Of a DNA stretch of 64,000 bases, positions 5,721-20,324 are shown in pieces. Position numbers and translations under genes: made by a program. Each line of letters begins with the position of its first letter. Within the stretch, counting starts at the first letter, position 1. This stretch comes from Escherichia phage PBECO4. The stretch lies in sequence record KC295538. One strand, given 5' to 3'. Below the pieces are notes generated by a model. The model searched no databases. It saw only the letters and a program-made list of their open reading frames with translations, and was not told where the DNA came from.

Positions 5721-5923
5721 TTTGAATCTCCTAACTTTGTGGGCCGTCGCACCATTGCCGCCCTACGAGATACATTATTGCAGTACTGATATACTTTGTC
5801 AATACTTTTTTATTAATAGTTTTAGTTCCACCAGCAGATAGTTACTCACCGTTATTAACTATATATTTTGGATACACTTATGCACCCTGTGGGCTGATTT
5901 GTTTCTATGCGTATATAATAGCA

Positions 5924-5951
5924 AAGGGACTGACCGGAGTCAATCCCTTTT
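5924..5951. terminator. TTGACT-containing hairpin flanked by A-run and T-run (bidirectional terminator-like, copy 1 of 12)
   Basis: aaagggactgaccggagtcaatcccttttt; same element recurs 11 more times. Confidence 0.5.
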
Positions 5952-5964
5952 TTATTCTTTTTTG

Positions 5965-6165
5965 TTAGATGATTCTCCAATCATCAACGATCATGGTAAG
6001 ATACCGAACCAGTGATTCGAGTGATTCGTGTTCTCGATAGTCTGCCGCACCGCCAGCGGTACAAGTACAGCCGATTAAGCCGTTTTGCAATTCCTTAATC
6101 TGTACATCGATAAGGTTGGCTTTAGCTTCTTTCAGTACTTCAACCAGGGCGAGAGCGATAGACAT
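5965..6165 (-). CDS. hypothetical protein
   Basis: Track ORF; promoter+hairpin at 6166..6255. Confidence 0.6.
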   Translation of the reverse strand: MSIALALVEVLKEAKANLIDVQIKELQNGLIGCTCTAGGAADYREHESLESLVRYLTMIVDDWRII

Positions 6166-6255
6166 AATGTTTTACTCCAAACTATTGGCGGGAGAACTAT
6201 TCCCCCGCTCTATGTAAAACATTATACATTACTGGTTAGTACTGTCAAATAGTTT
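6166..6255 (-). promoter_or_regulatory. sigma70-like promoter + 5' UTR hairpin
   Basis: tgtcaa/attata on + strand (TTGACA/TATAAT on minus), hairpin gcgggagaactattcccccgc. Confidence 0.6.
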
Positions 6256-6513
6256 TTATGAAATATCTTCGATGTAGTCGGCCCATTTCATTTTTTCAGT
6301 ACTGTCAATGGCTACCGGATTATTTGGATCAAACCATTCACCATTACCGCAATACATACCAACGGCTACGGTTTTATAGCCATCCTGGGCCGTACACCAC
6401 GACATTGCACGATAGATATGGCCTTTAACTGGTTGCAGTACTGGTAACGTTTTATGGTCTTCTACGTAGGCCATAGCTTGAGGATTTACCCGATATTGTG
6501 TGAATTGTTCCAT
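6256..6513 (-). CDS. hypothetical protein
   Basis: Track ORF; TTGACA-N17-TGTAAT upstream (6514..6589). Confidence 0.6.
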   Translation of the reverse strand: MEQFTQYRVNPQAMAYVEDHKTLPVLQPVKGHIYRAMSWCTAQDGYKTVAVGMYCGNGEWFDPNNPVAIDSTEKMKWADYIEDIS

Positions 6514-6589
6514 TATGTTTCCCCTTGTAGTTAGTAAAGTTATTACATCAGTACTATCAAGCTATGTCAATAGTACTGAAATAAAACTT

Positions 6590-6814
6590 TTAGATTAGAT
6601 TATTGAGGCCGTCAATGGTAGACTCACTTTCTTCTTTCTCCCATTGTCGGTAGTACTTCCATGCTTCATGATAGGTGGCGATTAGTTCATCTTTTTGATC
6701 CTGGTTACATGCCAGTACTGAATCACGGTGAGCGGTGTTATAGATAGAATCGAATGATTTCTTCTCTTCTGCCAGGTTAGCTACTTCCCGCATCAGTTCA
6801 TCAAAGTTAGCCAT
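6590..6814 (-). CDS. hypothetical protein
   Basis: Track ORF; own promoter+hairpin. Confidence 0.6.
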   Translation of the reverse strand: MANFDELMREVANLAEEKKSFDSIYNTAHRDSVLACNQDQKDELIATYHEAWKYYRQWEKEESESTIDGLNNLI

Positions 6815-6881
6815 TTTATTACTCCTTTTAGTGGGGGAGGATATCTCCCCCTATGCAAAACATTATACTTTGTTTTAGTTA
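6815..6881 (-). promoter_or_regulatory. sigma70-like promoter + 5' UTR hairpin
   Basis: hairpin gggggaggatatctccccc; atgcaaaacattatac motif. Confidence 0.55.
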
Positions 6882-7145
6882 TTATGCAAGTACTTTTTTC
6901 ATATAAACATTAAATTCTACACCGCCGTAACCTTCCACGATGATATGTTTTGCGTTATCACGTTTGCACATAGTGAAACCATCGTTTACGTGTTTTGCAT
7001 TTTCCAGGGCGACATCACCGATAGCGGCACATACAGCACTAATAACGATATTCCGCAAAGTACTGGTATCATTAGCGGTCATAGTAGTTTGCATGATTAC
7101 GTTGTCGTATACGTGTGCATTGATAGTGATTTCGATAGTGTTCAT
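6882..7145 (-). CDS. hypothetical protein
   Basis: Track ORF. Confidence 0.6.
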   Translation of the reverse strand: MNTIEITINAHVYDNVIMQTTMTANDTSTLRNIVISAVCAAIGDVALENAKHVNDGFTMCKRDNAKHIIVEGYGGVEFNVYMKKVLA

Positions 7146-7231
7146 GGTGTATCTCCTGGACTGGCGGGAGAACTATTCCCCCGCTCTATGTAAAACATTA
7201 TACGTTAATCTAACTACAATGCAAGTACTTT
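7146..7231 (-). promoter_or_regulatory. sigma70-like promoter + 5' UTR hairpin
   Basis: hairpin gcgggagaactattcccccgc; atgtaaaacattatac. Confidence 0.55.
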
Positions 7232-7423
7232 TTAAATTTTATTTCCGATATAGTCTGGCCTGTTCTTTTCGGTCATACGCTTAAGCATTTTTTGCATATG
7301 GCTTATTGCTTGTAGTGTATCCTCTTCCAGGGATGAATCGAGATAATCAGGATCATTCTTCACCTTGCAATGATTATGATAGCGTAGTACTGCCAGTACT
7401 TTTTTAACTTCTTCAACTGTCAT
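7232..7423 (-). CDS. hypothetical protein
   Basis: Track ORF; overlaps upstream gene by 4 nt. Confidence 0.55.
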   Translation of the reverse strand: MTVEEVKKVLAVLRYHNHCKVKNDPDYLDSSLEEDTLQAISHMQKMLKRMTEKNRPDYIGNKI

Positions 7424-7692
7424 AATAAGTACTCCACTTCGTTAGCTTTCAGGTTAGTATCAATCATCAATGGTTTTTTGTAGTTCACAAAACGATTAGT
7501 TTTTTCGATAGCGAATCCCATATAATCCAGCTTACTAACAGTACATTCATTCTTAAAAACTTCTTTCGCTGCATCGATGGCTGATTGCATGGATAACCGA
7601 CCATCTAAATTAATGTTTCCAAATGATCCACCAGCAGAAGTAGGATTACCGTTCATATCTTTAATGATCATAGTAGCGGAGTAGCTGGACAT
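7420..7692 (-). CDS. hypothetical protein
   Basis: Track ORF; promoter+hairpin at 7693..7776. Confidence 0.6.
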   Translation of the reverse strand: MSSYSATMIIKDMNGNPTSAGGSFGNINLDGRLSMQSAIDAAKEVFKNECTVSKLDYMGFAIEKTNRFVNYKKPLMIDTNLKANEVEYLL

Positions 7693-7776
7693 AATTTTGT
7701 TTCCTTTTAGTATCGGGGAGAACTATTCTCCCCTTGATGTAAACTATTATACAGTACTAATATACTTTGTCAATAC
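7693..7776 (-). promoter_or_regulatory. consensus sigma70-like promoter + 5' UTR hairpin
   Basis: Minus strand TTGACA (7773..7768), 16-nt spacer ending AGTACTG, TATAAT (7751..7746); hairpin ggggagaa-cta-ttctcccc 7714..7733. Confidence 0.65.
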
Positions 7777-7998
7777 TTAATTACGTTTAAAATGATATGT
7801 GCCTTTATCATCCTGTACGCCCCATACTGATTTACCATCAACACCAGTGAAGCCGGATTGTAATTCAATATGGAAACCATTATTATCAACTACAAAAACT
7901 TTTTTATTTTCATCCCGATAACATTGATATTCTGAATCAACATTAAAGGCCGCATCATTCAGAAGATTGGAAGCGTAAATGCAAGTCATTGTAGTCAT
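7777..7998 (-). CDS. hypothetical protein
   Basis: Track ORF 7777..8073 trimmed to ATG 7998 (MTTMTCIY..) with AAGGA SD; extension is translated promoter/hairpin. Confidence 0.6.
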   Translation of the reverse strand: MTTMTCIYASNLLNDAAFNVDSEYQCYRDENKKVFVVDNNGFHIELQSGFTGVDGKSVWGVQDDKGTYHFKRN

Positions 7999-8179
7999 GA
8001 TTTTATTCCTTATTGCCAGGGAGAACCGTTTCCCCCTCTCGATATAAAACATTATACTTGATTCTAAGTACAATGCAAGTACTTTTTTAAAATAGTTTTC
8101 AGTACTGAATACTTATATAATAGATACACTTCCGCACCCTATGGGTCAGTGAGTTATCTCTCAATGAATATATAATAGC

Positions 8180-8210
8180 AAAGGGACTGACCGGAGTCAA
8201 TCCCTTTTTT
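8180..8210. terminator. TTGACT-containing hairpin element (copy 2)
   Basis: aagggactgaccggagtcaatccctttttt. Confidence 0.5.
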
Positions 8211-8218
8211 AATCTTTT

Positions 8219-8803
8219 TTATCGTGTTATAGTTACGGCTTTTACATCACGCTTTTTATAGTACTGATTCCAGATATTGCGGGTTAAACCGTAATCAAGT
8301 ACTTTAATAAGGCCGTTGCGATCCTGGCCGATATTCTGTTTTCTGATATCTCTTATCGTTAGTGTTGACAGTGTATCATCAACGTGTTGTAGTGCATCAG
8401 CAAAGCGGTGCTGGCGTTCAATAGCATTACGTTTAATATTGTACTTTAATTCGTTGCACGCGTTAACGTGCTTCACACTGCCTTTACTTGCAGTACTCAA
8501 CCGATCCATAACAATAAACATATTATCAGGATCGCTTAAATGCATATGCACTTTAGCGAAGAACTGTTTCAACTGAGGGCGGTCATAGTCTAAAAAATTC
8601 CATACCCTACATTCTGTTTCATTTTGTTCTACACCCGCATCACAATTCGCGACCTTGATCACTAACCGATCATTTAAAGCGAAAACTATACGGGAAGAAC
8701 CCGCACCGATGATCTCCAGACCAGCTAACCGACAAGCTGAAAGGATCTCTTTGTTGGTTTCCATTGCTGACAGGGTACGGATGAATTTAGTATAATTACG
8801 CAT
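8219..8803 (-). CDS. protein kinase-like protein (Hanks-type fold)
   Basis: IGAGSSRIVF glycine loop, VIKV lysine, IRDIRKQNIG catalytic-loop-like, LDYG (DFG-like); start trimmed to ATG 8803 with AAGGAG. Confidence 0.55.
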   Translation of the reverse strand: MRNYTKFIRTLSAMETNKEILSACRLAGLEIIGAGSSRIVFALNDRLVIKVANCDAGVEQNETECRVWNFLDYDRPQLKQFFAKVHMHLSDPDNMFIVMDRLSTASKGSVKHVNACNELKYNIKRNAIERQHRFADALQHVDDTLSTLTIRDIRKQNIGQDRNGLIKVLDYGLTRNIWNQYYKKRDVKAVTITR

Positions 8804-8834
8804 TGCATGTTCTCCTTGAGTTAATGAAACTATC

Positions 8835-9134
8835 TTACAGTACTTTACTATCAATGGCAACTACTTTTTTTACACTAACCGCGTGAATCACTTCCTTAGT
8901 GTTTTTAGTACTGAATACTTTCGCCGTGCCTTGTTCTACTGCAATACGATAACGACCGTTAACATCAACCATATTAATAAAGTCCGGTGTACTAAACCGA
9001 GTAGTTTTACATTTCAGTACTGTTAACAGTTCCACCAGCGATGTGGTTTCTTTGATACGTTTTTCTAAAGTAATCATTTTGTTTTCCCCGTGTTGGTATG
9101 TACATATAGTACTAAAACATTTGAGTACTGTCAA
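8835..9134 (-). CDS. hypothetical protein
   Basis: Track ORF. Confidence 0.55.
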   Translation of the reverse strand: MTVLKCFSTICTYQHGENKMITLEKRIKETTSLVELLTVLKCKTTRFSTPDFINMVDVNGRYRIAVEQGTAKVFSTKNTKEVIHAVSVKKVVAIDSKVL

Positions 9135-9385
9135 CGTGATATTAGTTTTATTTTCTTATTATATTGTTGATGTTCATAAAGGTTTATCTTTCCTGTGTTC
9201 TCTATTACTATTCTGTTGTTAGTGTCTACATCGATTACACGCAGTTTTCCGTTGCTTAACTTCCTTGGTAATAGGTTACCATTAATAAACTCATTAGCAA
9301 GCTGTACGGCCTTTGTGATGATTCTCTGAGGTGCTTTATAGTGTACCCGCAAGATATTATCTTTAGATAGTTGTACCTTAATCAT
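9131..9385 (-). CDS. hypothetical protein
   Basis: Track ORF; 4-nt overlap with downstream gene. Confidence 0.55.
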   Translation of the reverse strand: MIKVQLSKDNILRVHYKAPQRIITKAVQLANEFINGNLLPRKLSNGKLRVIDVDTNNRIVIENTGKINLYEHQQYNKKIKLISR

Positions 9386-9400
9386 TTTAGTTTATCCTAT

Positions 9401-9425
9401 AAAAAAGGCGGGAACTGATCCCGCC
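9401..9425 (-). terminator. rho-independent terminator (minus strand)
   Basis: ggcgggaactgatcccgcc hairpin preceded on + by AAAAAA (U-run on minus), just 3' of gene 9448..9843. Confidence 0.6.
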
Positions 9426-9447
9426 GTGTTGTTAGTACTGCAAGTTA

Positions 9448-9843
9448 TTAGATAACCTGTCGGCGTTTACTATATACTGTTACACGATTACCCTTACGGT
9501 CGTGTCGGATCTCTTTCTGGTTGCGTACCAGTTCACTTGGACGCTTCAGGTTTGCCAGGTGATCCGCGTGAGTCCAAGCGGTATGGTTTGTCTGTACTTT
9601 GATATCAGAATCAGCGATAAACTCATCTTGTGCATCAAGTATTGACGCCAGTAAATCCGCTCGTTTTAGTTCTGCTGCTGTTAGTACTGGCTCCGGTGAA
9701 TTCACAATATCAGAGATCTCTTTGAACTGTACGGCCCAGCGTTGACCTTTCGGTGCATCTTTGCCCATGTCTTTAAATGTTTCGCCTTCCTCGCGTGCAA
9801 CAATACGGGCAGCTTCACGGGTAGCGTAGAATTTAGTAATCAT
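9448..9843 (-). CDS. hypothetical protein, paralog of 22341..22607
   Basis: Shared FATRE.ARI.AR..G.TFKDMG and DRKGNRVTVY segments. Confidence 0.6.
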   Translation of the reverse strand: MITKFYATREAARIVAREEGETFKDMGKDAPKGQRWAVQFKEISDIVNSPEPVLTAAELKRADLLASILDAQDEFIADSDIKVQTNHTAWTHADHLANLKRPSELVRNQKEIRHDRKGNRVTVYSKRRQVI

Positions 9844-9938
9844 GGTATACATCCTATTAGTTGAGTTAGTACTACAAGTTAGAGTCTATTATAAAGTACT
9901 ATCTGGGCAATGTCAAATAGTACTTTAAATGGATTCTA

Positions 9939-10262
9939 TTACATGTCTTTCTTACGTTTTACATCGTGGTAGCGAACTGTTATTTCTTTGTTGATCTCTT
10001 CCTCGATGCGGTGAATAACTGTTTCTTTCGGGTTGAAACCTATAACGGTTTCTTTAATGATCTCCAAGCCCGTGTATTCTCCTTGTGTACCGTAACCGTA
10101 AGTAAAGGTTTCATGTCCCAGGTCTTCCCAGCGGTCGCCAATTAACGCGGACACGTAGCAAGAGTGGTAAGTGTTACCGTTCCGATCAGTCCAGCGATTA
10201 ACTTTAATGTCAAAGGAGGTTACAATTTTCAGTTCTACTTTCTGGGTAAGGATCATAGCCAT
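9939..10262 (-). CDS. hypothetical protein, paralog of 16709..17032
   Basis: Shared RWTD..GNTYHSC.VS, FTYGY, C-terminal DVKRKKD. Confidence 0.6.
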   Translation of the reverse strand: MAMILTQKVELKIVTSFDIKVNRWTDRNGNTYHSCYVSALIGDRWEDLGHETFTYGYGTQGEYTGLEIIKETVIGFNPKETVIHRIEEEINKEITVRYHDVKRKKDM

Positions 10263-10352
10263 TTTTATTTCTCTCTCTCTTTGTTAGGAGGGGAACCGTT
10301 TCCCCTCGCTTGATGTAAACTATTATACAGTACTAAGATACTTTGTCAATAC
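10263..10352 (-). promoter_or_regulatory. sigma70-like promoter + 5' UTR hairpin
   Basis: tgtcaa/attata on +; hairpin gaggggaaccgtttcccctc. Confidence 0.6.
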
Positions 10353-10535
10353 TTATTTTTTGGAAAGTTTACGCATTAATTCTACGCTTTCTTGTGAACG
10401 TTTTGCTACCTGGCAATCTGTATGGGTAGTAAACATTTTTGTATAGTCTGACGGTTTGCCACCGAACCGAGCGGCACGCTCACGGGCACTTGGAACTAAT
10501 ACGATTTCTTTCTTACAGATAGTGCACTTAGCCAT
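10353..10535 (-). CDS. small Cys-containing protein (possible zinc ribbon)
   Basis: CTICKK...HTDC in 60 aa; own promoter+hairpin. Confidence 0.5.
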   Translation of the reverse strand: MAKCTICKKEIVLVPSARERAARFGGKPSDYTKMFTTHTDCQVAKRSQESVELMRKLSKK

Positions 10536-10620
10536 TTTTATTTCTCTCTCTTTGTTAGGAGGGGAACCATTCCCCCCTTGATGTAAACTATTATACAGTA
10601 CTAAGATACTTTGTCAATAC
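10536..10620 (-). promoter_or_regulatory. sigma70-like promoter + 5' UTR hairpin
   Basis: Near-identical copy of unit 10263..10352. Confidence 0.6.
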
Positions 10621-10896
10621 TTAATTATTGTAAATGCAGTGAATAGTGATAAAGTTTTTACGACCGTAAACCTGCAAATCAATATCAATGTAGTGCTTAT
10701 CAAGTACATCCTCGACGCTTAACGCGGTGTCGTGAATATCTTCGTAGAATTGAGGATCTACAATCTTGCTTAAGTCATCCGGCGTTAACTTATCGTTAAG
10801 CCATTGAACCGCCTGGATATCTGCTTCACGTTTCCAGTCTTCCAGGTTAGTAGTCAGTACTTGCTCGATTTCGTTAGCTGTCAGTAGAATCCGCAT
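10621..10896 (-). CDS. hypothetical protein
   Basis: Track ORF. Confidence 0.55.
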   Translation of the reverse strand: MRILLTANEIEQVLTTNLEDWKREADIQAVQWLNDKLTPDDLSKIVDPQFYEDIHDTALSVEDVLDKHYIDIDLQVYGRKNFITIHCIYNN

Positions 10897-11093
10897 TTTT
10901 ATGTTTCCTTATCAGTAGTTGATGTAAGTATTATACTCGTTTACTTTCTATTGTCAATCTTTTTTTATCAGGGGAGTTTTTCGTATGTCTTACTCCTGGA
11001 CTACTTAACGGGGTTACTTGTTTTGTTCCCCGTCCTGATGTAAAACATTATACTTGATTCTAAGTACAATGCAAGTACTTTTTAAAAATAGTT

Positions 11094-11258
11094 TTACTTA
11101 CTCATATTAACAGGCTTGAACGGTGGCAATGTAAGATCATGCGGGGTTAAACTATCATGCTTTGCCCACATACCGGAATCCCTACGGAATAATACCTTAT
11201 TGTTTTTTATACGATAAAAGTTACCATTATCAGTGTTTTTGTACCATATCATTTTCAT
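11094..11258 (-). CDS. hypothetical small protein (54 aa)
   Basis: Own translation MKMIWYKNTDNGNF..; GGAG SD; promoter motif upstream. Confidence 0.4.
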   Translation of the reverse strand: MKMIWYKNTDNGNFYRIKNNKVLFRRDSGMWAKHDSLTPHDLTLPPFKPVNMSK

Positions 11259-11398
11259 TTACTCCTGGTTATGTCGTTATTAAACATTATACGGGGTTAT
11301 AGATAGTTTTCAAGTATATTTCAGTACTAGCCACCAGCATATAATAGATACATTTATGCACCCTATGGGCTGATTTTTTTCTATGCGTATATAATAGC

Positions 11399-11430
11399 AA
11401 AGGGACTGACCGGAGTCAATCCCTTTTTTA
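11399..11430. terminator. TTGACT-containing hairpin element (copy 3)
   Basis: agggactgaccggagtcaatccctttttt. Confidence 0.5.
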
Positions 11431-11437
11431 ATTCTTT

Positions 11438-11587
11438 TTAAACTTCTTTCGGGTTGCGATATGTGATAGCGTTCGGGTACATTTGTTTAATGTTATTCCA
11501 TGCCTGGTTAACATTGTAACCACTTGAGCGAATCAGTTGGTTACTACCGACACCTTGAAACACTACTTCGAATAAGAATTCTTTCAT
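11438..11587 (-). CDS. hypothetical small protein (49 aa)
   Basis: Own translation MKEFLFEVVFQG..; ATGA overlap with upstream ORF. Confidence 0.4.
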   Translation of the reverse strand: MKEFLFEVVFQGVGSNQLIRSSGYNVNQAWNNIKQMYPNAITYRNPKEV

Positions 11588-11757
11588 GCTTTCACCTCGC
11601 TATCTGCTTTACCTTTACGCCAGGACATTACTAATTGTTCGCGTTGCCATAAATCGAGTGATACAAAAAGTTTTGCGGTATCACTTTTAGGATACTCGCC
11701 AGTAGTACCTAACCGATAAAACAGATCTTTCAGTACTGATAATTCTACTTGAATCAT
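11584..11757 (-). CDS. hypothetical small protein (57 aa)
   Basis: Own translation MIQVELSVLKDLFYRLG..; translationally coupled. Confidence 0.4.
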   Translation of the reverse strand: MIQVELSVLKDLFYRLGTTGEYPKSDTAKLFVSLDLWQREQLVMSWRKGKADSEVKA

Positions 11758-11863
11758 TTTATTACTCCTGATTGATTTAATACTTCTACTATTGCATGAA
11801 TGATCATAAGTACAGCTAAAACAATAATCATCGGATTCATTTGCATAAGCTGTACTCCTTCTA

Positions 11864-12076
11864 TTAATCTTTCAGCCAATGATCTTGAATGAATTTTTCA
11901 CAGAATCCCTGTTTCATGGATTCCAACAGGCGTTCGCGGTGAGCGTTTGCGAATTGCTCAGTACTATGCGTTACGCCAGGCTGATAACGTGATACCCCAT
12001 CCGGTCCGATGTATTGTACATCCCACGGTTTTTCGTTAGTATCAGACCATTTACGAACGATTAGTTGACCTTGCAT
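11864..12076 (-). CDS. hypothetical protein
   Basis: Track ORF; promoter+hairpin 12077..12159. Confidence 0.6.
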   Translation of the reverse strand: MQGQLIVRKWSDTNEKPWDVQYIGPDGVSRYQPGVTHSTEQFANAHRERLLESMKQGFCEKFIQDHWLKD

Positions 12077-12159
12077 TTTTCTTTCCTCTCAGTGGGGAGA
12101 ATCATTTCTCCCCTTCATGTAACTTATTATACAGTACTAGATTATCTTGTCAATAGTTT
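12077..12159 (-). promoter_or_regulatory. sigma70-like promoter + 5' UTR hairpin
   Basis: ggggagaatcatttctcccc hairpin; tgtcaa/attata. Confidence 0.6.
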
Positions 12160-12483
12160 TTATTCACCTTGTTTGAATTTAGTTTTCTCCATTGATTCCA
12201 TGATTGCAACCAATACGCCGTGGATCTCGCTTAACGCGGAATCACTGAAAGCATTAATGAATAGTCGATCATTCTCGCGAATATTTTTAATGTACTTTTC
12301 AGCAGTAGTTGCGAATTCATTCAACGGTAGATCAAATGCTTTATCCCATGATGGATGGCGTAATTGTAACAGTACTGGATTATCACGATCACCAGGGGAA
12401 AACGTACCAGTGATGAAACATACGCCCGGAATACTTTCGAACTGGCAACGGACTTCCTTTGTGATAGTAGTATGAATGTACAT
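12160..12483 (-). CDS. hypothetical protein
   Basis: Track ORF. Confidence 0.55.
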   Translation of the reverse strand: MYIHTTITKEVRCQFESIPGVCFITGTFSPGDRDNPVLLQLRHPSWDKAFDLPLNEFATTAEKYIKNIRENDRLFINAFSDSALSEIHGVLVAIMESMEKTKFKQGE

Positions 12484-12510
12484 TTATTGTTATCCTCTAT
12501 TAAATTAATA

Positions 12511-12705
12511 TTACAGTTTATGAATCAATTCTTTATCTAAGCGATAGCGTACATTATTAATAGTAACGGCATTGTTTTTAATGCTACGCTGTACAGGTCC
12601 ACCAGCAATAACAAATGTTGCTTTATTACCCCGAACAATGATAGCACTTCCAGGATTACCGAAATCATCTTGTACTAAAATACTTGATAAGTTTTCCATT
12701 TTCAT
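12511..12705 (-). CDS. hypothetical protein
   Basis: Track ORF; promoter+hairpin upstream. Confidence 0.55.
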   Translation of the reverse strand: MKMENLSSILVQDDFGNPGSAIIVRGNKATFVIAGGPVQRSIKNNAVTINNVRYRLDKELIHKL

Positions 12706-12780
12706 TTCCTCTTAGTAGGGGAAGATGTTTCCCCTTGATGTAAGTACTATAACACTACTGGATAGTACTGTCAATACTTT
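12706..12780 (-). promoter_or_regulatory. promoter + 5' UTR hairpin
   Basis: hairpin aggggaagatgtttcccct; tgtcaa -35. Confidence 0.5.
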
Positions 12781-13038
12781 TTATCTCATAGATCTATGCC
12801 AACAATTACGCGGGGGACGTTTAAAAGTACTATCATGATCCTCCTGGCAAGTTATGCAGTACTTACATCCCTTAACGGCCTGGCGTCGTTTCTCAGGGAT
12901 TATATCGCCGCAGTCGAGGCAATGTATCAGTGATTCTATTTGTGCGTTAATTTGCTTTCTAGCGTGGTTAACGGCGGCCTGAATCACTGCGTTAATCTCG
13001 TCTTGTTCGGCCCCATCTTTCGCGAATCCTACAGCCAT
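12781..13038 (-). CDS. TraR/DksA-family C4 zinc finger protein
   Basis: C-x2-C-G-x2-IP-x2-RR-x5-C-x2-C spacing (HCLDCGDIIPEKRRQAVKGCKYCITCQ) matches the DksA/TraR zinc finger. Confidence 0.6.
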   Translation of the reverse strand: MAVGFAKDGAEQDEINAVIQAAVNHARKQINAQIESLIHCLDCGDIIPEKRRQAVKGCKYCITCQEDHDSTFKRPPRNCWHRSMR

Positions 13039-13369
13039 TATTTTAACCTCATTATAAAAATACTATAGTACTGTAATGCGACAATAATATTACTTGTTCT
13101 TACTTTTTCCAATCCACATGATACCACATATTCATCCCCATATGTGCGGAACGATACACCATGAAAATTTTTATACACTTGCACTACTAATCATAACCTT
13201 TCGTCTAACCAACTGCATAGAATTATACTACTTTACGCAAATTGATCAAGTATTGATCAGATCATTTTTTGATCAATATTATACAGTTACATTTGTGCAC
13301 CCTATGGGTTAGTGACGTTCTCGTCTTGATGTAAGTATTATGCCAGTACTTGATGATATTGTCAATAGT

Positions 13370-13567
13370 TTATTTTAATTTTTTTCTGTCATTGATTAAT
13401 GCTTTCAGTACTATACTAATGATTTGCAATGATTCATCAATGACTATAAAATTATTCTCTTTCATTAGATGATAGTTACCATTGATTGTATATTCTAAGG
13501 AGTACTGTTTACGTTTAATTTTTGATAATGTTTCTATTTGTTTTTGTACTGATTTCATGCTAATCAT
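13370..13567 (-). CDS. hypothetical protein
   Basis: Track ORF. Confidence 0.5.
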   Translation of the reverse strand: MISMKSVQKQIETLSKIKRKQYSLEYTINGNYHLMKENNFIVIDESLQIISIVLKALINDRKKLK

Positions 13568-13672
13568 TGTTAAACGTCCTGTAACGCATTCTAACGAGAT
13601 AAACGGTTTAGTACTGGCATTGTATAGGGTAATGAATTAAAGCCCACCAGCGTTAACCAGTGGGCTATAATC

Positions 13673-13816
13673 TTACATCTTGCGGATAATCTTAACAGTA
13701 TCTTTCACCGATTTACCGTCTTGCTGGCATTGCTCGATCATTGCGTATTGTTCTGCTGTAAGATCCTCGCCAGTTTTTGCCAGTACTGCGTCGATGAATG
13801 AATCCAGTGCGATCAT
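13673..13816 (-). CDS. hypothetical small protein (47 aa)
   Basis: Own translation MIALDSFIDAVLAKTGEDL..; promoter-like region upstream. Confidence 0.4.
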   Translation of the reverse strand: MIALDSFIDAVLAKTGEDLTAEQYAMIEQCQQDGKSVKDTVKIIRKM

Positions 13817-13915
13817 TTTGTTTCTCTCTTAGGTTAAGTTAACTACTGTTTATAAAACTTATTATACAGTACTATCAAACGTTGTCAATATCTTTAATAG
13901 TACTGGTAATATATT

Positions 13916-14095
13916 TTAGCGGTAATCGTCGTATGCTTTATTCACCTGGCGAATGTAACTTTCAAAGGCTTCGTCTACCGTTTCATACTCCCGAACATAA
14001 TCACCATAGGAAACTACATACATACCTTTTTGATCTTCAAACGACATGATGATAGAATCCAGGCCGATGATTTCAGTTTTTGCGATGATAGCCAT
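13916..14095 (-). CDS. hypothetical protein
   Basis: Track ORF trimmed to ATG 14095 (MAIIAKTE..). Confidence 0.55.
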   Translation of the reverse strand: MAIIAKTEIIGLDSIIMSFEDQKGMYVVSYGDYVREYETVDEAFESYIRQVNKAYDDYR

Positions 14096-14178
14096 TTTTA
14101 ATTCCTTAGTAGTGTAGTTGATAAAAGTTATTATGCCAGTACTATCAATCAGTGTCAATAGTACTGTGATAATATTTT

Positions 14179-14391
14179 TTAGTTAATAATAGTCAGTGTA
14201 AAATTGTAATCCCCTGCCTGGTATAGTACTTTATCGCCGAACGTTCCAACACGTTTCATATTGCAATAGATACCCATAACACTTTTTACATCTTTGATAT
14301 TCCGAACGCCAGTAATATCCTTGTTTAAATGATCGTGATCAGAAAATAAAACTTGTTTTGCATTTTTCAGTACAGTGCAGATATTAGCCAT
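14179..14391 (-). CDS. hypothetical protein
   Basis: Track ORF; promoter+hairpin 14392..14485. Confidence 0.6.
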   Translation of the reverse strand: MANICTVLKNAKQVLFSDHDHLNKDITGVRNIKDVKSVMGIYCNMKRVGTFGDKVLYQAGDYNFTLTIIN

Positions 14392-14485
14392 TTTGTTTTC
14401 TCTCTGTTAGTGGGGAGAATCATTTCTCCCCTTCATGTAACTTATTATACAGTACTATAATCTATTGTCAAACTATTTTTTTATA
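14392..14485 (-). promoter_or_regulatory. sigma70-like promoter + 5' UTR hairpin
   Basis: ggggagaatcatttctcccc hairpin identical to that at 12077..12159. Confidence 0.6.
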
Positions 14486-14827
14486 TTATTCGAAATCTTC
14501 TGGACCGGACTGATAATCATCTTCACCGTATGCACTTTCTAACTTCTCGCCAGTGTGATCATCAGTTAGTGAATCATCCTCATAATTCACGTCTACGCCT
14601 ACAATGTAAAACTGGCTATCGTCTGGATCATTGAAATTAATTTTCTGAATGTTTACAATAACTGTATTGATGCCCAGGACACAGCCATCAGCCGTTACAA
14701 AGTACTGATAGTTTTCACAACCGCCTGAATTGAAACCGTAATTGATTTCGGCCCGACCATCATTTAAACGCAGTGCCTGGGCGATGATTTCGTTTTCAAA
14801 GTTAGATTGAGCAATTGAGATAGTCAT
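14486..14827 (-). CDS. hypothetical acidic protein
   Basis: Track ORF; D/E-rich C-terminus. Confidence 0.6.
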   Translation of the reverse strand: MTISIAQSNFENEIIAQALRLNDGRAEINYGFNSGGCENYQYFVTADGCVLGINTVIVNIQKINFNDPDDSQFYIVGVDVNYEDDSLTDDHTGEKLESAYGEDDYQSGPEDFE

Positions 14828-15019
14828 GATTCGTTTCCTTATTACTAGGGGAAACCGTTTCCCCTTTCGATGTAAAACATTATACGCTTATTGAGATAGT
14901 TTGCAAGTACTTTTTATCAAATACTTTAAAATAGTTTTCAGTACTCAAACATTATACAATAGATACACTCCTGCACCCTGTGGGCTAGTGAGCTATCTCT
15001 CAATGATTATATAATAACA

Positions 15020-15049
15020 AAATGGCTGACCGAAGTCAACCACTTTTTT
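15020..15049. terminator. TTGACT-containing hairpin element (copy 4, variant)
   Basis: aatggctgaccgaagtcaaccacttttttc. Confidence 0.45.
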
Positions 15050-15052
15050 CAT

Positions 15053-15187
15053 TTATTTTTTAGCTTTAAGTACTGCGGCCTTTCGTGTCATGCCTTGCTT
15101 GATGTATTCCTGTACTTTCGCTTTACGTGCTTTAGCTTTATCTGCTTTAGTTTTAGGAGTACTGTAAACTATACCGTTAGGATTCAT
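15053..15187 (-). CDS. hypothetical small basic protein (44 aa)
   Basis: Own translation MNPNGIVYSTPKTKADKAKARKAK.. Confidence 0.35.
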   Translation of the reverse strand: MNPNGIVYSTPKTKADKAKARKAKVQEYIKQGMTRKAAVLKAKK

Positions 15188-15273
15188 TTAAATCACCATA
15201 AAGAATAGATAGGTTACTAACAACGCCGCGATCAATGCACCGACCAGGGCCGAACTGTAATAAGCTAAGGATC

Positions 15274-15426
15274 TCATTTTTTAGCCTGAAAATAATGTTT
15301 AATTTGTGCGGCGGTCAGTGCACAATTACGCAGGAAGTTTTCTGTATAACTGCGGCGAGTATTAAAAGAGAATTGACCTTTACCGTTACCGATAGTTACA
15401 TCCATCCGAGCGTTGTATTGTTTCAT
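15274..15426 (-). CDS. hypothetical small protein
   Basis: Track ORF 15274..15456 trimmed to MKQYNARMDV.. Confidence 0.5.
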   Translation of the reverse strand: MKQYNARMDVTIGNGKGQFSFNTRRSYTENFLRNCALTAAQIKHYFQAKK

Positions 15427-15507
15427 TTTGTATCTCCTGTTATCGGGGAGAATCATTTCTCCCCTTCATGTAAAACATTATACAGTACTAAAAACTAATT
15501 GCAAGTA
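15427..15507 (-). promoter_or_regulatory. sigma70-like promoter (TTGCAA -35) + 5' UTR hairpin
   Basis: ggggagaatcatttctcccc; ttgcaagtatt on +. Confidence 0.6.
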
Positions 15508-15750
15508 TTATTTTAAACTTTGTGCGACTAATTTCGCACGGTCAATCATATACTGCCATTTTTGGATCTCTTCTGGCAGAAAACGATATTCACCAATAAC
15601 AATAGTGATACACTTTTCAGCTTGGTCAATGTATGTAGTATCAATCTCGACTTGAACGGGTACACGTTCGCCGTATTCAGTCCCTGGGATAATGCAATCA
15701 TTATCATAAGTTACAGTAGTAGTAGTGTCTTTGATTAAAATTGTTTCCAT
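15508..15750 (-). CDS. hypothetical protein
   Basis: Track ORF. Confidence 0.6.
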   Translation of the reverse strand: METILIKDTTTTVTYDNDCIIPGTEYGERVPVQVEIDTTYIDQAEKCITIVIGEYRFLPEEIQKWQYMIDRAKLVAQSLK

Positions 15751-15819
15751 TATACTTTCCTCGTTAGGTGTAAGGGGAACGTTTTCCCCTTCATGTAAAA
15801 CATTATACAGTACTGAAAA
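15751..15819 (-). promoter_or_regulatory. sigma70-like promoter + 5' UTR hairpin
   Basis: aggggaacgttttcccct hairpin. Confidence 0.55.
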
Positions 15820-16029
15820 CTAATTGCAAGTACTTTCCGAAAGTAAATGCTCATACGCTGCATTAACTACATTTTCAATAACCGACTGTACAGAAAGATC
15901 CCCCACGTCCTGGCTATAGTAGAAATTGCTTACAGTGGTGTCATCGTATGCAAATACTTTACCAGGTACTGCATCAATCACATACATATTAACCTTTAAG
16001 ATGTCGATCTTATCCTGTACAGTAAGCAT
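15820..16029 (-). CDS. hypothetical protein
   Basis: Track ORF. Confidence 0.55.
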   Translation of the reverse strand: MLTVQDKIDILKVNMYVIDAVPGKVFAYDDTTVSNFYYSQDVGDLSVQSVIENVVNAAYEHLLSESTCN

Positions 16030-16034
16030 ATTAA

Positions 16035-16307
16035 TTAACCTTTTAAGTACTGGCTTAAGTAGTCTTTTTGATCTTCGGTGATTGCAGTCATCTTCCCTAG
16101 TACTGGATTGATGATATAATCCCCTGTAACGTCCTGTAACGCATTCTCAGGCGGTTTAACGGCTGGGGTAGCCATAGCCATTGCCTGGACTTGTTCGACG
16201 CTGTAACGCTCATAAAGGCGGCATTCTTCCGGTGTTAACATAGCATCAGTACGCTTCATCGGTTTAATGATGCTTTCGATCTCATTCAGTACTTGATTAA
16301 CGTTCAT
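16035..16307 (-). CDS. hypothetical protein
   Basis: Track ORF. Confidence 0.55.
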   Translation of the reverse strand: MNVNQVLNEIESIIKPMKRTDAMLTPEECRLYERYSVEQVQAMAMATPAVKPPENALQDVTGDYIINPVLGKMTAITEDQKDYLSQYLKG

Positions 16308-16358
16308 GGTATAATCCCCAATATAAGCGGCCTAAATCGACCGCTAACGATGTTTTGA

Positions 16359-16628
16359 TTAATAGGTGTAAGGTTGACGCTCAAACAATGATTGTACGCT
16401 GTACGCCCCGCTAATGGGCTTCGCTGGCAAATCAATTTTATATTGTTCACGCTTAAAGATAATAAAACGGCAATTGTTTTTAACATCAAAATTGATTGAA
16501 CGTTCCAGGAGTTTTCCATCGTGCACAAATACAAGATAACCGCTTGGTACTTGTTTTGTAGAACTGGTTGCAACCATAGACCGACGAACATGTGTACCTG
16601 CATCGATTAAAGTACTGATATTTTTCAT
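16359..16628 (-). CDS. hypothetical protein
   Basis: Track ORF; preferred over overlapping 16304..16603 frame. Confidence 0.5.
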   Translation of the reverse strand: MKNISTLIDAGTHVRRSMVATSSTKQVPSGYLVFVHDGKLLERSINFDVKNNCRFIIFKREQYKIDLPAKPISGAYSVQSLFERQPYTY

Positions 16629-16708
16629 TTTACTATCCTCTTAAGTTGATTTAATTTCTTTCCCCTATGCAGACACTGTATCAAAGTATCTGCATAAAGT
16701 AAAGCTAA

Positions 16709-17032
16709 TTAAAGATCTTTTTTACGTTTTACATCCTGTACAGTACAATGCAACGGGATAGACAAATCATTACACAAACGAGTAAGGGAGGTTTCAACAG
16801 TATCAAGCCCGTCTACTGATTCCTTTAAGAGATCAAACGCCGTTTGTTGATATGCATCTTCATAGCCATAAGTAAATGATTCAACCGCCAGATCATTCAA
16901 ACCGTTATCCAGTTCAACGCTTACATGACAAGAATGATAAGTATTGCCATATGAATCAGTCCAACGTTTACCGTCAACATTGATTGCATGGATTGCAGCC
17001 AGGGAAACGGTATTGATGATAGTTTTAGCCAT
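16709..17032 (-). CDS. hypothetical protein, paralog of 9939..10262
   Basis: Shared RWTD.YGNTYHSCHVS, FTYGY, DVKRKKDL. Confidence 0.6.
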   Translation of the reverse strand: MAKTIINTVSLAAIHAINVDGKRWTDSYGNTYHSCHVSVELDNGLNDLAVESFTYGYEDAYQQTAFDLLKESVDGLDTVETSLTRLCNDLSIPLHCTVQDVKRKKDL

Positions 17033-17123
17033 TTTAGTATTCCTTAAATTAATATGTGTCGTCTTGATAAAATCTATTATGCCAGTACTATCAAACTATG
17101 TCAATAGTACTGTGATAATATTT

Positions 17124-17336
17124 TTACTTACTTTCTTTCGCTGCTTTATATGTTGCCACTGCCATAACCACATCAGCACGAACAAAGTTTTTAACCGTGT
17201 CACTGTAATAATTGATCGCATCATCTATATCTGCGAACGTCCGATACATACCGCACCAAGATACTTTATAACCTTCTTTCACTTCTGCCAGTTTAACGAT
17301 AGTCTTGTTAACTTTGATTTTAGTAATGATAGCCAT
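17124..17336 (-). CDS. hypothetical protein
   Basis: Track ORF trimmed to ATG 17336 (MAIITKIKV..). Confidence 0.55.
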   Translation of the reverse strand: MAIITKIKVNKTIVKLAEVKEGYKVSWCGMYRTFADIDDAINYYSDTVKNFVRADVVMAVATYKAAKESK

Positions 17337-17423
17337 TTTAGTTTCCTCATTATCAGGGAGAACCATTTCTCCCCTTGATGTAATGTATTATACTTTATTC
17401 GATTTACTTTGCAAGTACTTTTT
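17337..17423 (-). promoter_or_regulatory. sigma70-like promoter + 5' UTR hairpin
   Basis: gggagaaccatttctcccc hairpin. Confidence 0.55.
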
Positions 17424-17651
17424 TTAATTTAATTCATCCAGGCAAAGGATACGCTCAACGCCCAAATCAGTTAAACTAATCGACGGCACTTGATAGGTTT
17501 CAATGTATGCTACACTTGCCCACTGACCGAACTCATTAACGGCCCAGGTATTCATTGCATTTTGCAATTCCGCACCTGCCTTGTTAGTAATGACTGCAAC
17601 TACTTGTTCGTTGCCAGTAGTACCAGATACGCGAGTAATGATAATAGCCAT
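17424..17651 (-). CDS. hypothetical protein
   Basis: Track ORF trimmed to ATG 17651 (MAIIITRVSG..). Confidence 0.55.
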   Translation of the reverse strand: MAIIITRVSGTTGNEQVVAVITNKAGAELQNAMNTWAVNEFGQWASVAYIETYQVPSISLTDLGVERILCLDELN

Positions 17652-17888
17652 TGTTTTGATTCCTTTGATTTGGAAGGAGAACCGTTTCCCCCTCTCGATG
17701 TAAAACATTATACGCTAATCTCTTAATCGTGCAAGTACTTTTTATTACTTTTTGCAAAATACTTTAAACGCTCTCAATCGCATTCTAACGACCTTAACGC
17801 CACCAGCTAGGGCGATGTATCAGATAATCAGTTTAATGCGTTAGAATCGATTCTAGGCGGTGCTGGTGGACTGGAATACTACAGACAC

Positions 17889-17915
17889 AAAAAAGCCCAC
17901 TGTTTAAGGTGGGCT
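17889..17915 (-). terminator. rho-independent terminator (minus strand)
   Basis: agcccactgtttaaggtgggct hairpin with A-run on + (U-run on minus), 3' of gene 17937..18419. Confidence 0.6.
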
Positions 17916-17936
17916 AGTGATTCAGTACTTTAATTG

Positions 17937-18419
17937 TTATGCTTCAACTTTGCGATGAGCTTCGATCCATTCCTCGCGAGTCATACCGCTTTCTTTGATA
18001 GCGTCCAGTACTACCGCAATGCAGTTACCGCGTACAGGAATCATATGTTCTTCCCCGTTATCAAGTACTACAGTAACACGTTCTTGAATCCATTTTTTAG
18101 GTTTAGATTCTGGCTTATCTTCACCATACTTAACCGCCAGGGCTTTATGTGCCATTTCTACAACTACTTCCAGATCCAATCCAGCCACCGCCGCCTGGAT
18201 ACTTTCGATTGTTGCTTGCAGTTCGGCTTCACGGGCTTTTTTCTGTTCTTCCAGTTCTGCTACCTTTTTGGCTTGCAGTTCTTTAGCTTCACTGTACGCA
18301 ATGTTAAAATTGTTGCGTACTGCTTTCATGGTATCGTTATCCAGGTCAGCCAACAATTCAGCAGCAATAACAGTATCGTTTGAAATCAGTGCTTTCAGGA
18401 ATGATTTTACATTAGCCAT
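17937..18419 (-). CDS. hypothetical protein (predicted coiled-coil segment)
   Basis: Track ORF trimmed to MANVKSF..; central AKELQAKKVAELEEQKKAREAELQ heptad-like stretch. Confidence 0.6.
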   Translation of the reverse strand: MANVKSFLKALISNDTVIAAELLADLDNDTMKAVRNNFNIAYSEAKELQAKKVAELEEQKKAREAELQATIESIQAAVAGLDLEVVVEMAHKALAVKYGEDKPESKPKKWIQERVTVVLDNGEEHMIPVRGNCIAVVLDAIKESGMTREEWIEAHRKVEA

Positions 18420-18623
18420 TTTATAAATCCTCAATTAAAGTTTAGTTTACGTTTATTAGTGTATCAAAGTTTTATCGACGTGTCCAGTTTTTCGTTCGAC
18501 TTACTGGCGGTCTACTTAGTGCTCCCCGTCTTGATGTAATACATTCTACGCCTTTTTGTGGTAATGTCAACTACTATTTTAAAACTATTTTTAAAGTATG
18601 CAGTACTACGATAATACAAAAAC

Positions 18624-18650
18624 AAAAAAGCCCACTGTTTAAGGTGGGCT
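18624..18650 (-). terminator. rho-independent terminator (minus strand)
   Basis: Second copy of agcccactgtttaaggtgggct with A-run. Confidence 0.6.
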
Positions 18651-18667
18651 AGTGATTCAGTACTATA

Positions 18668-18967
18668 TTATAAACAGTTAATTACTCCGGTGTGCGTTAC
18701 TTTCTCAGTATCCATAACCGTGACCGATCCACGCTTAGTACTTACATCGTAATAAATTGTCGTGCTACCTTTTTCGTCTTCTTCATGGAACGGGCCGCTT
18801 TTAAATGCTTCTGGCTGGATCTCTAAATCCTTTAAAACAATCTCGCCAGTACTTTCATCTGTCATCGCAACAGTGCACTGAATGAATTTTTCACTACTTA
18901 CATCTAACGACGCATTAACAGCGAAAGAGGAAACAGATAAAGCCAGGGCGATGATTGCAATTTTCAT
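18668..18967 (-). CDS. small secreted protein (signal peptide)
   Basis: MKIAIIALALSVSSFAVNA N-terminus. Confidence 0.6.
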   Translation of the reverse strand: MKIAIIALALSVSSFAVNASLDVSSEKFIQCTVAMTDESTGEIVLKDLEIQPEAFKSGPFHEEDEKGSTTIYYDVSTKRGSVTVMDTEKVTHTGVINCL

Positions 18968-19051
18968 TTGATTATCCTTAGTTACCAGGGGGAACCGCTC
19001 CCCCGTGCGATGTAAAATATTGTACAGTACTAAAAACTAATTGCAAGTACT
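18968..19051 (-). promoter_or_regulatory. sigma70-like promoter + 5' UTR hairpin
   Basis: agggggaaccgctccccct hairpin. Confidence 0.55.
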
Positions 19052-19288
19052 TTATGATTTTTTATAAAACATTTCGGCAGTAATATTTTTACCCGTTGGT
19101 TGTACTTTATCCAGAATTTTTTGATGCCCTGGCCGTCCAAATGAATATGATCCGTAAACCGTAAACCAGTAGTTACCCTCAGTGTTTACATGTACAGCAC
19201 AATAGGGAACGCCCCGCGATTCATCACCAATAAAGTGTGATACCGTTCCCGTTACATTAGCAGACGTTGATTTGATTTGTTCAAGCAT
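19052..19288 (-). CDS. hypothetical protein
   Basis: Track ORF. Confidence 0.55.
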   Translation of the reverse strand: MLEQIKSTSANVTGTVSHFIGDESRGVPYCAVHVNTEGNYWFTVYGSYSFGRPGHQKILDKVQPTGKNITAEMFYKKS

Positions 19289-19397
19289 TTTCTTATTCCT
19301 TAGTTACCAGGGGGAACCGCTCCCCCTATGCAAAACATTATACGCGTTTAAAAACTAATAGCAAGTATTTTAATAAAAAGTATTTGAAAAATAATTG

Positions 19398-19426
19398 TTG
19401 ACAACTGCATCCAGTACTGGCATAAT
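19398..19426 (+). promoter_or_regulatory. + strand sigma70-like promoter (TTGACA-N17-CATAAT) driving a short noncoding transcript
   Basis: ttgaca 19398..19403, cataat 19421..19426; downstream box ctaacccaccgggtgc; no + strand ORF. Confidence 0.45.
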
Positions 19427-19500
19427 TACTACATCAAGACGAAACAGTCACTAACCCACCGGGTGCCGAGATCCGTCTATTAAATGATTCAGTACTTAAC

Positions 19501-19524
19501 AATAAAGGGGATCAATCGATCCCC
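19501..19524 (-). terminator. hairpin terminator (minus strand; may also stop the + strand transcript)
   Basis: ggggatcaatcgatcccc with flanking A/T runs immediately 3' of gene 19531..19752. Confidence 0.5.
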
Positions 19525-19530
19525 TATGTA

Positions 19531-19752
19531 TTACTTAGTAAGGTATAAACAGAAGTCACCTTTATTTGCTACGCCGCCAGTGTAACGCGATGAATAGTTA
19601 GAAACGTCCTGGACTTCTGCTATTACCAGTGTATCATCATTCAATTCGTCGCAGAAGCAAACGGCTGGATCTTTTACGCCGATCTTGTCGGCATGTTCCC
19701 GCATAGATTTAACCAGTGCTTCCAGTTGAGAAAGAGTAGTGATATTAGCCAT
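19531..19752 (-). CDS. hypothetical protein
   Basis: Track ORF trimmed to ATG 19752 (MANITTLSQ..). Confidence 0.55.
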   Translation of the reverse strand: MANITTLSQLEALVKSMREHADKIGVKDPAVCFCDELNDDTLVIAEVQDVSNYSSRYTGGVANKGDFCLYLTK

Positions 19753-19836
19753 TGTATTTTCCTCATTACCAGGGAGAACCATTTCTCCCCTCTATGTAAA
19801 CTATTATACAGTACTGAAAACTAATTGCAAGTACTT
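19753..19836 (-). promoter_or_regulatory. sigma70-like promoter + 5' UTR hairpin
   Basis: gggagaaccatttctcccc hairpin. Confidence 0.55.
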
Positions 19837-20025
19837 TTAATTAAATTCCATAAAATCATTCTCAACGTGCACAACAATTTGATTGTTTTTAAAGTCCGCA
19901 GCGAACTCGATGCAATCATAAACCGCTTTTTGTGTTACAATGCTATGAGTACCAATCGGATTAATAGGGGATTGAATTGTTTCAATCTCGTTCCCTTGCT
20001 CATTAACAATTAAAATATTAAACAT
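19837..20025 (-). CDS. hypothetical protein
   Basis: Track ORF. Confidence 0.5.
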   Translation of the reverse strand: MFNILIVNEQGNEIETIQSPINPIGTHSIVTQKAVYDCIEFAADFKNNQIVVHVENDFMEFN

Positions 20026-20081
20026 CGCTGTTACTCCTGGGTAGTGTTAACTCGATATAAAGTATTATACGCCTTTATTGC

Positions 20082-20324
20082 TTAGTGTCCAGTACTTTTT
20101 AAAACATATTCATAAACACTACGCACATCATTGATCATCGCCTGGCGGTTAGCAGGTAACGCACCAGGATCGCCACTATCCCAGGCATTGATAAAACTCC
20201 CCAAATCATGAAAGATTTTATTCTGTAAGCCGATTAACTGCAATTCTTTTTCTTCAAGCTCTTTGATACGGTCAATTAAAAGACTCATTAGATAATCCTC
20301 AGTACTTAATTGTAAGATCCGCAA
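20082..20324 (-). CDS. hypothetical protein
   Basis: Track ORF. Confidence 0.5.
   Translation of the reverse strand: MRILQLSTEDYLMSLLIDRIKELEEKELQLIGLQNKIFHDLGSFINAWDSGDPGALPANRQAMINDVRSVYEYVLKSTGH

Follow-up and report, generated by a model that had tools for sequence, protein, structure and literature searches.

A YbiI-like zinc-finger protein of the DksA/TraR family encoded in the terminal repeat of Asteriusvirus jumbo coliphages

Proteins of the DksA/TraR zinc-finger family insert into the RNA polymerase (RNAP) of bacteria. The DxxDxA motif is critical for the function of TraR, DksA and Orf73, Gre factors carry DxxExA, and TraR R48 and R49 contact the rim helices and β′ Si3 (PMC9239242). 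All five of the phage TraR homologues tested bind RNAP, two of them with an incomplete DxxDxA, and some intermediate-length C4 "DksA homologues" that lack the motif do not act like DksA (PMC9239242). For YbiI, an Escherichia coli member of the family with a solved structure (2KGO), the literature on function holds nothing beyond a remark of 2009, given as data not shown in the source, that the protein at high level rescues dksA auxotrophy (PMC2613031). Our literature search found no paper linking Asteriusvirus to DksA and none on DksA-like proteins of virulent phages.

The window analysed here, a stretch of 64,000 nucleotides of Escherichia phage PBECO4 (KC295538), carries on its minus strand an 85-aa open reading frame (ORF) that the sequence-only reading had placed at 12781-13038 and assigned to the TraR/DksA-type C4 zinc fingers. 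The location proved exact: the frame opens with ATG, closes with TAA and is preceded by a GAGG Shine-Dalgarno sequence that is identical in five Asteriusvirus genomes, and the peptide quoted in that reading, HCLDCGDIIPEKRRQAVKGCKYCITCQ, corresponds to residues 39-65 of the product (Table 1). The assignment was borne out as well. On residues 39-68, Pfam PF01258 (zf-dskA_traR) scores 41.2 bits (E 1.6e-10), above its gathering score of 24.9, and PHROG 54, "DksA-like zinc-finger protein", is matched at E 1.1e-18; the match is well outside what chance would give. The cysteines, C40-x2-C43-x17-C61-x2-C64, do not vary in 58 homologues and fall on C37, C40, C58 and C61 of TraR, so that the CxxC-x17-CxxC spacing is the same as in TraR and DksA. 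The mismatch in spacing that the sequence-only reading had named as its refutation is thus not seen. Between them lie the IPExRR residues I47, P48, E49, R51 and R52, of which R51 and R52, likewise invariant in the 58 homologues, are the equivalents of TraR R48 and R49 in an HMMER alignment. The family call is thus correct, yet public records of relatives already carry it, several Asteriusvirus entries labelling the gene "DksA-like zinc-finger protein" or "TraR/DksA C4-type zinc finger protein".

By its profile and structure-database matches, the protein sits on the YbiI branch of the family. The top NCBIfam model is NF008243 (YbiI family/PRK11019; 81.4 bits over residues 1-72, cut-off 96), followed by the TraR subfamily model TIGR02419 (52.5 bits, cut-off 59.7) and the TraR model NF010268 (30.1 bits, cut-off 108), the score lying under the curated cut-off in all three of these specific models; the DksA model NF033459 is matched at E 0.049 only. 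A sequence search of the PDB returned YbiI as the best solved match (2KGO; E 2e-12, residues 1-74) and F-plasmid TraR as the next (5W1S/6N57; E 1e-5, residues 18-71), with identical cysteine spacing and IPExRR over the aligned segment. The same residues, 18-71, aligned at a probability of 99.4% when hhalign was run against a profile of six TraR homologues that included lambda Orf73 and VP882 Orf61.

An AlphaFold2 (AF2) model built on 58 homologues (mean pLDDT 73) predicts three helices, a long one at residues 8-32, a short one at 49-54 and another at 62-71, along with a zinc ribbon and an unstructured tail; the pLDDT is ~52 for residues 1-10. The best PDB match of this model in Foldseek is TraR in its RNAP complex (6N57_M; TM 0.66, rmsd 3.2 Å, 67 columns), DksA being a weaker structural match. 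The three-element fold of TraR, made of an N-terminal helix, a zinc globule and a C-terminal helix, is present in the model, the C-terminal helix being shorter. TraR (5W1S, 6N57) and its phage homologues lambda Orf73, P2 Orf82 and VP882 Orf61 share with the protein described here the small three-part architecture, the cysteine spacing and the arginine pair; their genes, too, are carried by phages or mobile elements, in the company of early or regulatory genes. The phage protein differs from TraR at the N-terminus, which has three additional residues, begins with a non-helical stretch that contains glycine and lacks DxxDxA; in a 14-residue invariant basic tail that has no TraR counterpart; and in its carrier, which is a virulent jumbo phage rather than a temperate phage or plasmid. 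DksA (1TJL, 5VSW, 7KHI) has the same zinc-finger motif and spacing and, like the phage protein, an acidic element whose predicted place is the secondary channel, but it has 151 aa, a coiled coil of two helices and residues that bind ppGpp, whereas the phage protein has 85 aa and a single helix. By inspection, D74-R-A76-A-Q78-E-E of DksA resembles D8-x-A10-x-Q12-[DE]-E of the phage protein.

The main departure from TraR lies at the tip. The DxxDxA motif was not found in the N-terminus of the phage protein, which starts MAVGFAKDGAEQ instead and at the tip reads GFAKDGAEQ, with an aromatic residue in place of the first Asp. Residues 1-17 could not be placed in a consistent register against DxxDxA by MAFFT, HMMER and hhalign, the profile alignments beginning at residue 18, and an alignment of the tip onto the motif was therefore rejected. 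By inspection only, D8-x-A10 could match the second half of DxxDxA about one residue off register, an offset that falls within the loop-length variation among homologues. The segment is acidic (D8, E11, D13 and E14), as are the tips of TraR and DksA. A DksA-like protein of Ralstonia phage RS138, ORF29, has D-E-A at positions 8-10 (MFSNRTLDEAS...) together with a YbiI-like ARIPTGES loop, and its N-terminus looks intermediate between the TraR and YbiI types.

The unusual tip is a property of the larger clade. A profile search of 1.8 billion proteins yielded 149 YbiI-like cluster representatives, 116 of them with the CxxC-x17-CxxC finger; among these 116, an N-terminus of the G[FWY]AxDG type occurs in 86 and DxxDxA in only 4. 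The phage protein and YbiI accordingly have in common the N-terminal MAxG[FW]AxDGA motif of the YbiI family, the finger, IPExRR and the absence of DxxDxA, and they are of similar length (85 and 88 aa). They differ in bit score, the 81 bits of the phage protein lying under the equivalog cut-off of 96, in gene location (a chromosomal gene for YbiI, a phage gene in an early region here) and, most visibly, in the C-terminus. The bacterial tail YNRRGSKDSQLR (YNRRGSKDSQL[RK]), found in 51 of the 149 representatives, is absent from the phage protein, where FKRxPRNCWHRSMR stands; RNCWHRSMR replaces the bacterial tail in 45 of 45 phage-type clusters. The phage tail is predicted to be unstructured (pLDDT 50-65 in the AF2 model). 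Tail type co-varies with one face of the N-terminal helix, on which E11, E14 and H25 are invariant in phage proteins versus V11, Q14 and R25 in bacterial YbiI. A second metal site formed by H25, C79 and H81 was considered on the strength of this co-variation alone and rejected, the AF2 model giving it no support. All phage-type proteins collapse to one representative at 50% clustering. The modestly interesting aspect of the locus is, on these comparisons, the anatomy of the clade: no DxxDxA, an invariant tip shared with YbiI and an invariant tail confined to phages. The location in the terminal repeat of a virulent jumbo phage, in its probable early region, adds to this.

The phage-type protein occurs in Asteriusvirus jumbo coliphages, in the related Salmonella phage 7t3 group and in several T4-like genera, the T4-like carriers being Moonvirus, Dhakavirus and phages of Yersinia, Klebsiella and Edwardsiella. 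In Mosigvirus TH58, only 28 C-terminal residues of the zinc-finger protein (IYCVGCQSMHDEIFKREPRNCWHRSMR) are left, joined to an N-terminal part unrelated to it in a chimeric 63-aa ORF. PHROG 25948 represents this remnant, and phrog_25948, the second PHROG match of our protein, was for that reason rejected as a separate domain. At the zinc-finger locus the window is 99% identical to Asteriusvirus genomes such as CRJP21, BF17 and slurp01. CRJP21 has two copies of the gene, at 11111-11368 and 357260-357517, both within an exact direct terminal repeat (DTR) of 20,152 bp, which corresponds to 4467..25442 of the window and places the zinc-finger gene inside it. The window reads through both DTR boundaries, indicating a collapsed or circularly permuted assembly. 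A terminal repeat of 20,993 bp has been confirmed in fEgEco12 by PhageTerm and restriction digests (PMC13070987).

The DTR region is an array of ~50 small co-oriented genes and contains 10 perfect (12/12) sigma-70 promoter sequences (TTGACA-16/17-TATAAT), all on the coding (minus) strand, versus one in a control 20 kb of the window. Because the zinc-finger gene lies in a DTR so packed with consensus coding-strand promoters, its early transcription by host RNAP is plausible. The nine neighbouring genes matched only PHROGs of unknown function (9/9). Several other repeated elements were seen in the window. A recurring TTGCAA-16-TATAAT class is present in the DTR in ~10 copies. A hairpin, AAAGGGATTGACTCCGGTCAGTCCCTTT followed by GCTATTATAT, occurs on the minus strand in three identical copies (5923-5950, 8180-8207 and 11399-11426), with a variant at 15019-15046 and related sequences at 55680-55701 and 59104-59127; its stem holds TTGACT with TATTAT 17 nt on, a promoter-like pair, and the element looks like a combined terminator and promoter. 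Between ~32100 and 39700, segments of ~100 nt recur about every 1.2 kb (32174, 33393, 34610, 37125, 38348 and 39604) and match the junctions of tandem paralogous hypothetical genes of ~380-400 aa in CRJP21 (gp_571-579).

The sequence-only reading had also credited the gene with its own promoter, and this stands only in part. Good promoter matches do lie upstream, ~185 nt (13249..13222, 10/12) and ~300 nt (13365..13337, 11/12) from the gene, but both are beyond a 48-aa ORF, and the site directly upstream of the zinc-finger ATG reaches only 9/12, reading TTGAAT-17-TATTAT in divergent relatives. The sequence at 13365..13337 is identical among five Asteriusvirus genomes and is the strongest candidate promoter for the zinc-finger unit. 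A promoter and terminator scan found no terminator-like site between these promoters and the zinc-finger gene and none 3′ of the gene. In Salmonella phage 7t3, no promoter was found directly upstream of the homologue, where a terminator-like hairpin stands. Since the strong promoters lie 5′ of the 48-aa ORF, no terminator ends the unit and 7t3 does without a direct promoter, the arrangement of signals indicates that the zinc-finger gene belongs to a small promoter-served unit and has no private promoter. The 48-aa ORF keeps its length in the divergent JNE01 allele, with conservative substitutions despite a DNA identity of only ~60%, and is probably the real first cistron of the unit. As a conserved partner gene it was rejected, the upstream ORF of Dhakavirus being unrelated to it and a 195-aa gene taking its place in 7t3.

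Table 1. Features of the zinc-finger locus (window positions)
Feature	Position	Strand	Basis
Zinc-finger CDS, 85 aa, YbiI-like DksA/TraR C4	12781..13038	-	ORF; Pfam, PHROG, NCBIfam and PDB matches; purifying selection
Invariant N-terminal motif MAVGFAKDGAEQ, residues 1-12, where TraR has its DxxDxA tip	13003..13038	-	Alignments, codon comparison
Zinc-ribbon core, residues 40-64, CLDC-x17-CITC including IPExRR	12847..12921	-	Alignments, HMMER against TraR
Phage-specific invariant basic tail FKRxPRNCWHRSMR, residues 72-85	12784..12825	-	Alignments, codon comparison, AF2
Shine-Dalgarno GAGG, 8 nt 5′ of the zinc-finger ATG	13047..13050	-	Read from the sequence
48-aa ORF, GTG start, TAA stop overlapping the zinc-finger ATG (TAATG); phrog_38664	13038..13184	-	ORF list
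Weak promoter-like TTGGAA-17-TATTAT (9/12), within the 48-aa ORF, 46 nt before the zinc-finger ATG	13084..13112	-	Promoter scan
Promoter-like TTGATC-16-TATAAT (10/12), overlapping a GATC cluster	13222..13249	-	Promoter scan
Near-consensus sigma-70 promoter-like TTGACA-17-(TG)CATAAT (11/12, extended -10), then ACTTACATCAAG	13337..13365	-	Promoter scan
Promoter-like sequence TTGACA-17-TATAGT serving the next gene, its start 7 nt past the stop codon of the zinc-finger gene	12746..12774	-	Promoter scan

Two Asteriusvirus alleles of the 48-aa ORF share 44% amino acid identity in the first 32 residues while their last 16 codons are identical at the DNA level. This pattern points to a mosaic patch or else to constraint on the nucleotides themselves, imposed by the ribosome-binding site and promoter of the zinc-finger gene. 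In CRJP21, ELP-22, E9.1, JP4 and fEgEco12, a 357-nt acetyltransferase gene lies between the zinc-finger gene and the next gene; it is absent from the window. The promoter-like sequence at 12746-12774 is a hybrid with its junction at 12760-12764, its -35 half being that of the ELP-22 promoter before the acetyltransferase gene and its -10 half and leader those of the one after it, which points to loss or gain of the acetyltransferase cassette by recombination between two early promoters. Such an event would resemble the shuffling of promoter-stem-loop cassettes in T4-type phages.

Further upstream, a 33-bp stretch at 13243-13275 holds three TGATCA sites (four GATC), out of only 15 TGATCA in all 64 kb. 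The cluster overlaps the promoter-like sequence at 13249..13222, divergent relatives have five GATCAA copies there, and it might represent an array of operators or an element sensitive to Dam/SeqA. Among five Asteriusviruses, the leader at 13230-13336 (minus strand) hardly varies, less than the genes on either side of it, and contains a small hairpin, GACGAGAACGTC, followed by a minimal start-stop ATG-TAA (13292..13287) at the place where other cassettes hold a gene. A scan of the whole 64-kb window at Rfam gathering thresholds and a tRNA scan gave no matches; the conserved stretch of ~300 nt upstream thus corresponds to no known RNA. A structured leader or small RNA at 13185-13330 was unsupported, with a folding z of -2.2 and a centroid unlike the minimum free energy structure.

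From the family matches, the fold, the docking residues, the selection on both termini and the genomic context, it is reasonably likely, in our judgement, that the zinc-finger protein binds the RNAP secondary channel with a TraR-like outcome. The reported rescue of dksA auxotrophy by YbiI and the RNAP binding of all five phage TraR homologues speak for this reading; the missing tip motif, the scores under the specific NCBIfam cut-offs, the C4 homologues that lack DxxDxA and do not act like DksA, and the invariant tail, foreign to TraR and modelled at low confidence, speak against it. Host RNAP would probably transcribe the DTR genes, this one included, immediately after infection, most likely from 13365..13337 and/or 13249..13222 into one message that also covers the 48-aa ORF. 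On the pattern of TraR and lambda Orf73, the acidic N-terminal helix (residues ~8-32) would insert into the secondary channel, the globule of the zinc ribbon, which bears the invariant IPExRR, would dock on the β′ rim helices and Si3, and the C-terminal part would touch the β lobe. Such binding would alter the kinetics of the open complex, so that host promoters with short-lived open complexes, such as those of rRNA and ribosomal protein genes, would be depressed and the phage's consensus promoters spared. From what is established about DksA/TraR-sensitive promoters, consensus promoters with AT-rich discriminators are expected to be insensitive; the phage promoters, in which TATAAT or CATAAT is followed by ACTTACATCAAG, should be so because their discriminators are AT-rich. 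Because the protein belongs to the YbiI branch and lacks DxxDxA, we only infer RNAP binding and inhibition of rRNA promoters, and with GFAKDGAEQ at the tip in place of that motif the strength or the nature of the effect may differ from that of TraR.

Among the rival readings, an ORF without function, open by chance or decaying as a pseudogene, has next to no probability. The truncated remnant in Mosigvirus TH58, which keeps the last 28 residues only, does show that the gene is dispensable in some phages, but the full-length protein is kept in two phage lineages with invariant termini, the family match is significant and the Shine-Dalgarno sequence is good. Codon comparison with the Dhakavirus CLB_P2 homologue gives 30 synonymous and 29 non-synonymous differences overall, with 7 and 0 in the N-terminus (codons 1-12), 18 and 28 in the middle (codons 13-71) and 4 and 1 in the tail (codons 72-85). 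This pattern of conservation refutes the pseudogene reading and confirms a genuine coding gene under selection, with the strongest purifying selection at both termini of the protein, as would be expected if the termini contact the conserved host RNAP. In another rival reading, the zinc ribbon serves a different target, such as a nucleic acid or another host protein, with which the invariant termini of the YbiI clade would engage, and it resembles DksA and TraR through a shared fold only. Some C4 proteins of the DksA/TraR type indeed do not act on RNAP (PMC9239242), the YbiI clade is one in which only 4 of 116 representatives carry DxxDxA, and its invariant tails, YNRRGSKDSQLR in bacteria and the strongly basic RNCWHRSMR in phages, are its own, with no counterpart in TraR. 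We nevertheless regard such a target as decidedly unlikely, given that the RNAP-docking residues (IPExRR and G57) and the acidic N-terminal helix are conserved, that the best structural match is RNAP-bound TraR, and that complementation of dksA by YbiI has been reported.

A protein that enters the secondary channel could also act there in another manner than TraR, either as a passive competitor or as a direct effector of the active site or of elongation. Rnk is a passive competitor, and exclusion of DksA, GreA and GreB is proposed likewise for the zinc-finger protein. What speaks for such a role is that the fold and docking residues are TraR-like while the tip is different and invariant, being three residues longer than that of TraR with GFAKDG for DxxDxA, and that E11 and E14 are fixed in the phage-type proteins versus V11 and Q14 in bacterial YbiI. 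TraR S2 sits 4.3 Å from the catalytic Mg2+ (PMC6970531), so a longer N-terminus would have to reach into the active site or fold back, and the acidic pair D8-x-x-E11 of the phage clade is Gre-like, given the DxxExA of Gre factors (PMC9239242). However, this likeness to Gre was drawn by inspection only, the tip is modelled at a pLDDT of ~52 over residues 1-10, and the reported complementation of dksA by YbiI at high dose suggests DksA-like action rather than mere blocking; we consider a role of this kind unlikely. In a more specific version, which we hold to be doubtful, the phage clade, found in several T4-like genera as well as in Asteriusvirus-like jumbo phages, would descend from YbiI and be an RNAP effector with a mechanism of its own, marked by the invariant MAVGFAKDGAEQ tip and the invariant RNCWHRSMR tail. 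The longer, glycine-hinged tip with D8-x-x-E11 could then act directly at the active site. The basic tail with its Cys, Trp and His, which co-varies with the helix face E11, E14 and H25, could clamp onto that N-terminal helix or else onto another surface, of RNAP or of nucleic acid. The outcome would be unlike the kinetic tuning by TraR and DksA, for example an outright shut-off or a block of Gre and DksA access.

At present, the result chiefly confirms a label already found in public records. The TraR-like reading, which we prefer, would carry further. To our knowledge, the known cases of TraR-type reprogramming of transcription come from a plasmid and from temperate phages; if the zinc-finger protein does bind RNAP, this ppGpp-independent mode of redirecting host transcription would extend to virulent phages of the jumbo and T4-like kinds. 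One of the ~50 anonymous genes in the Asteriusvirus terminal repeat would then gain its first function, and there would be a handle on the large bacterial YbiI family, which has the same unusual tip.
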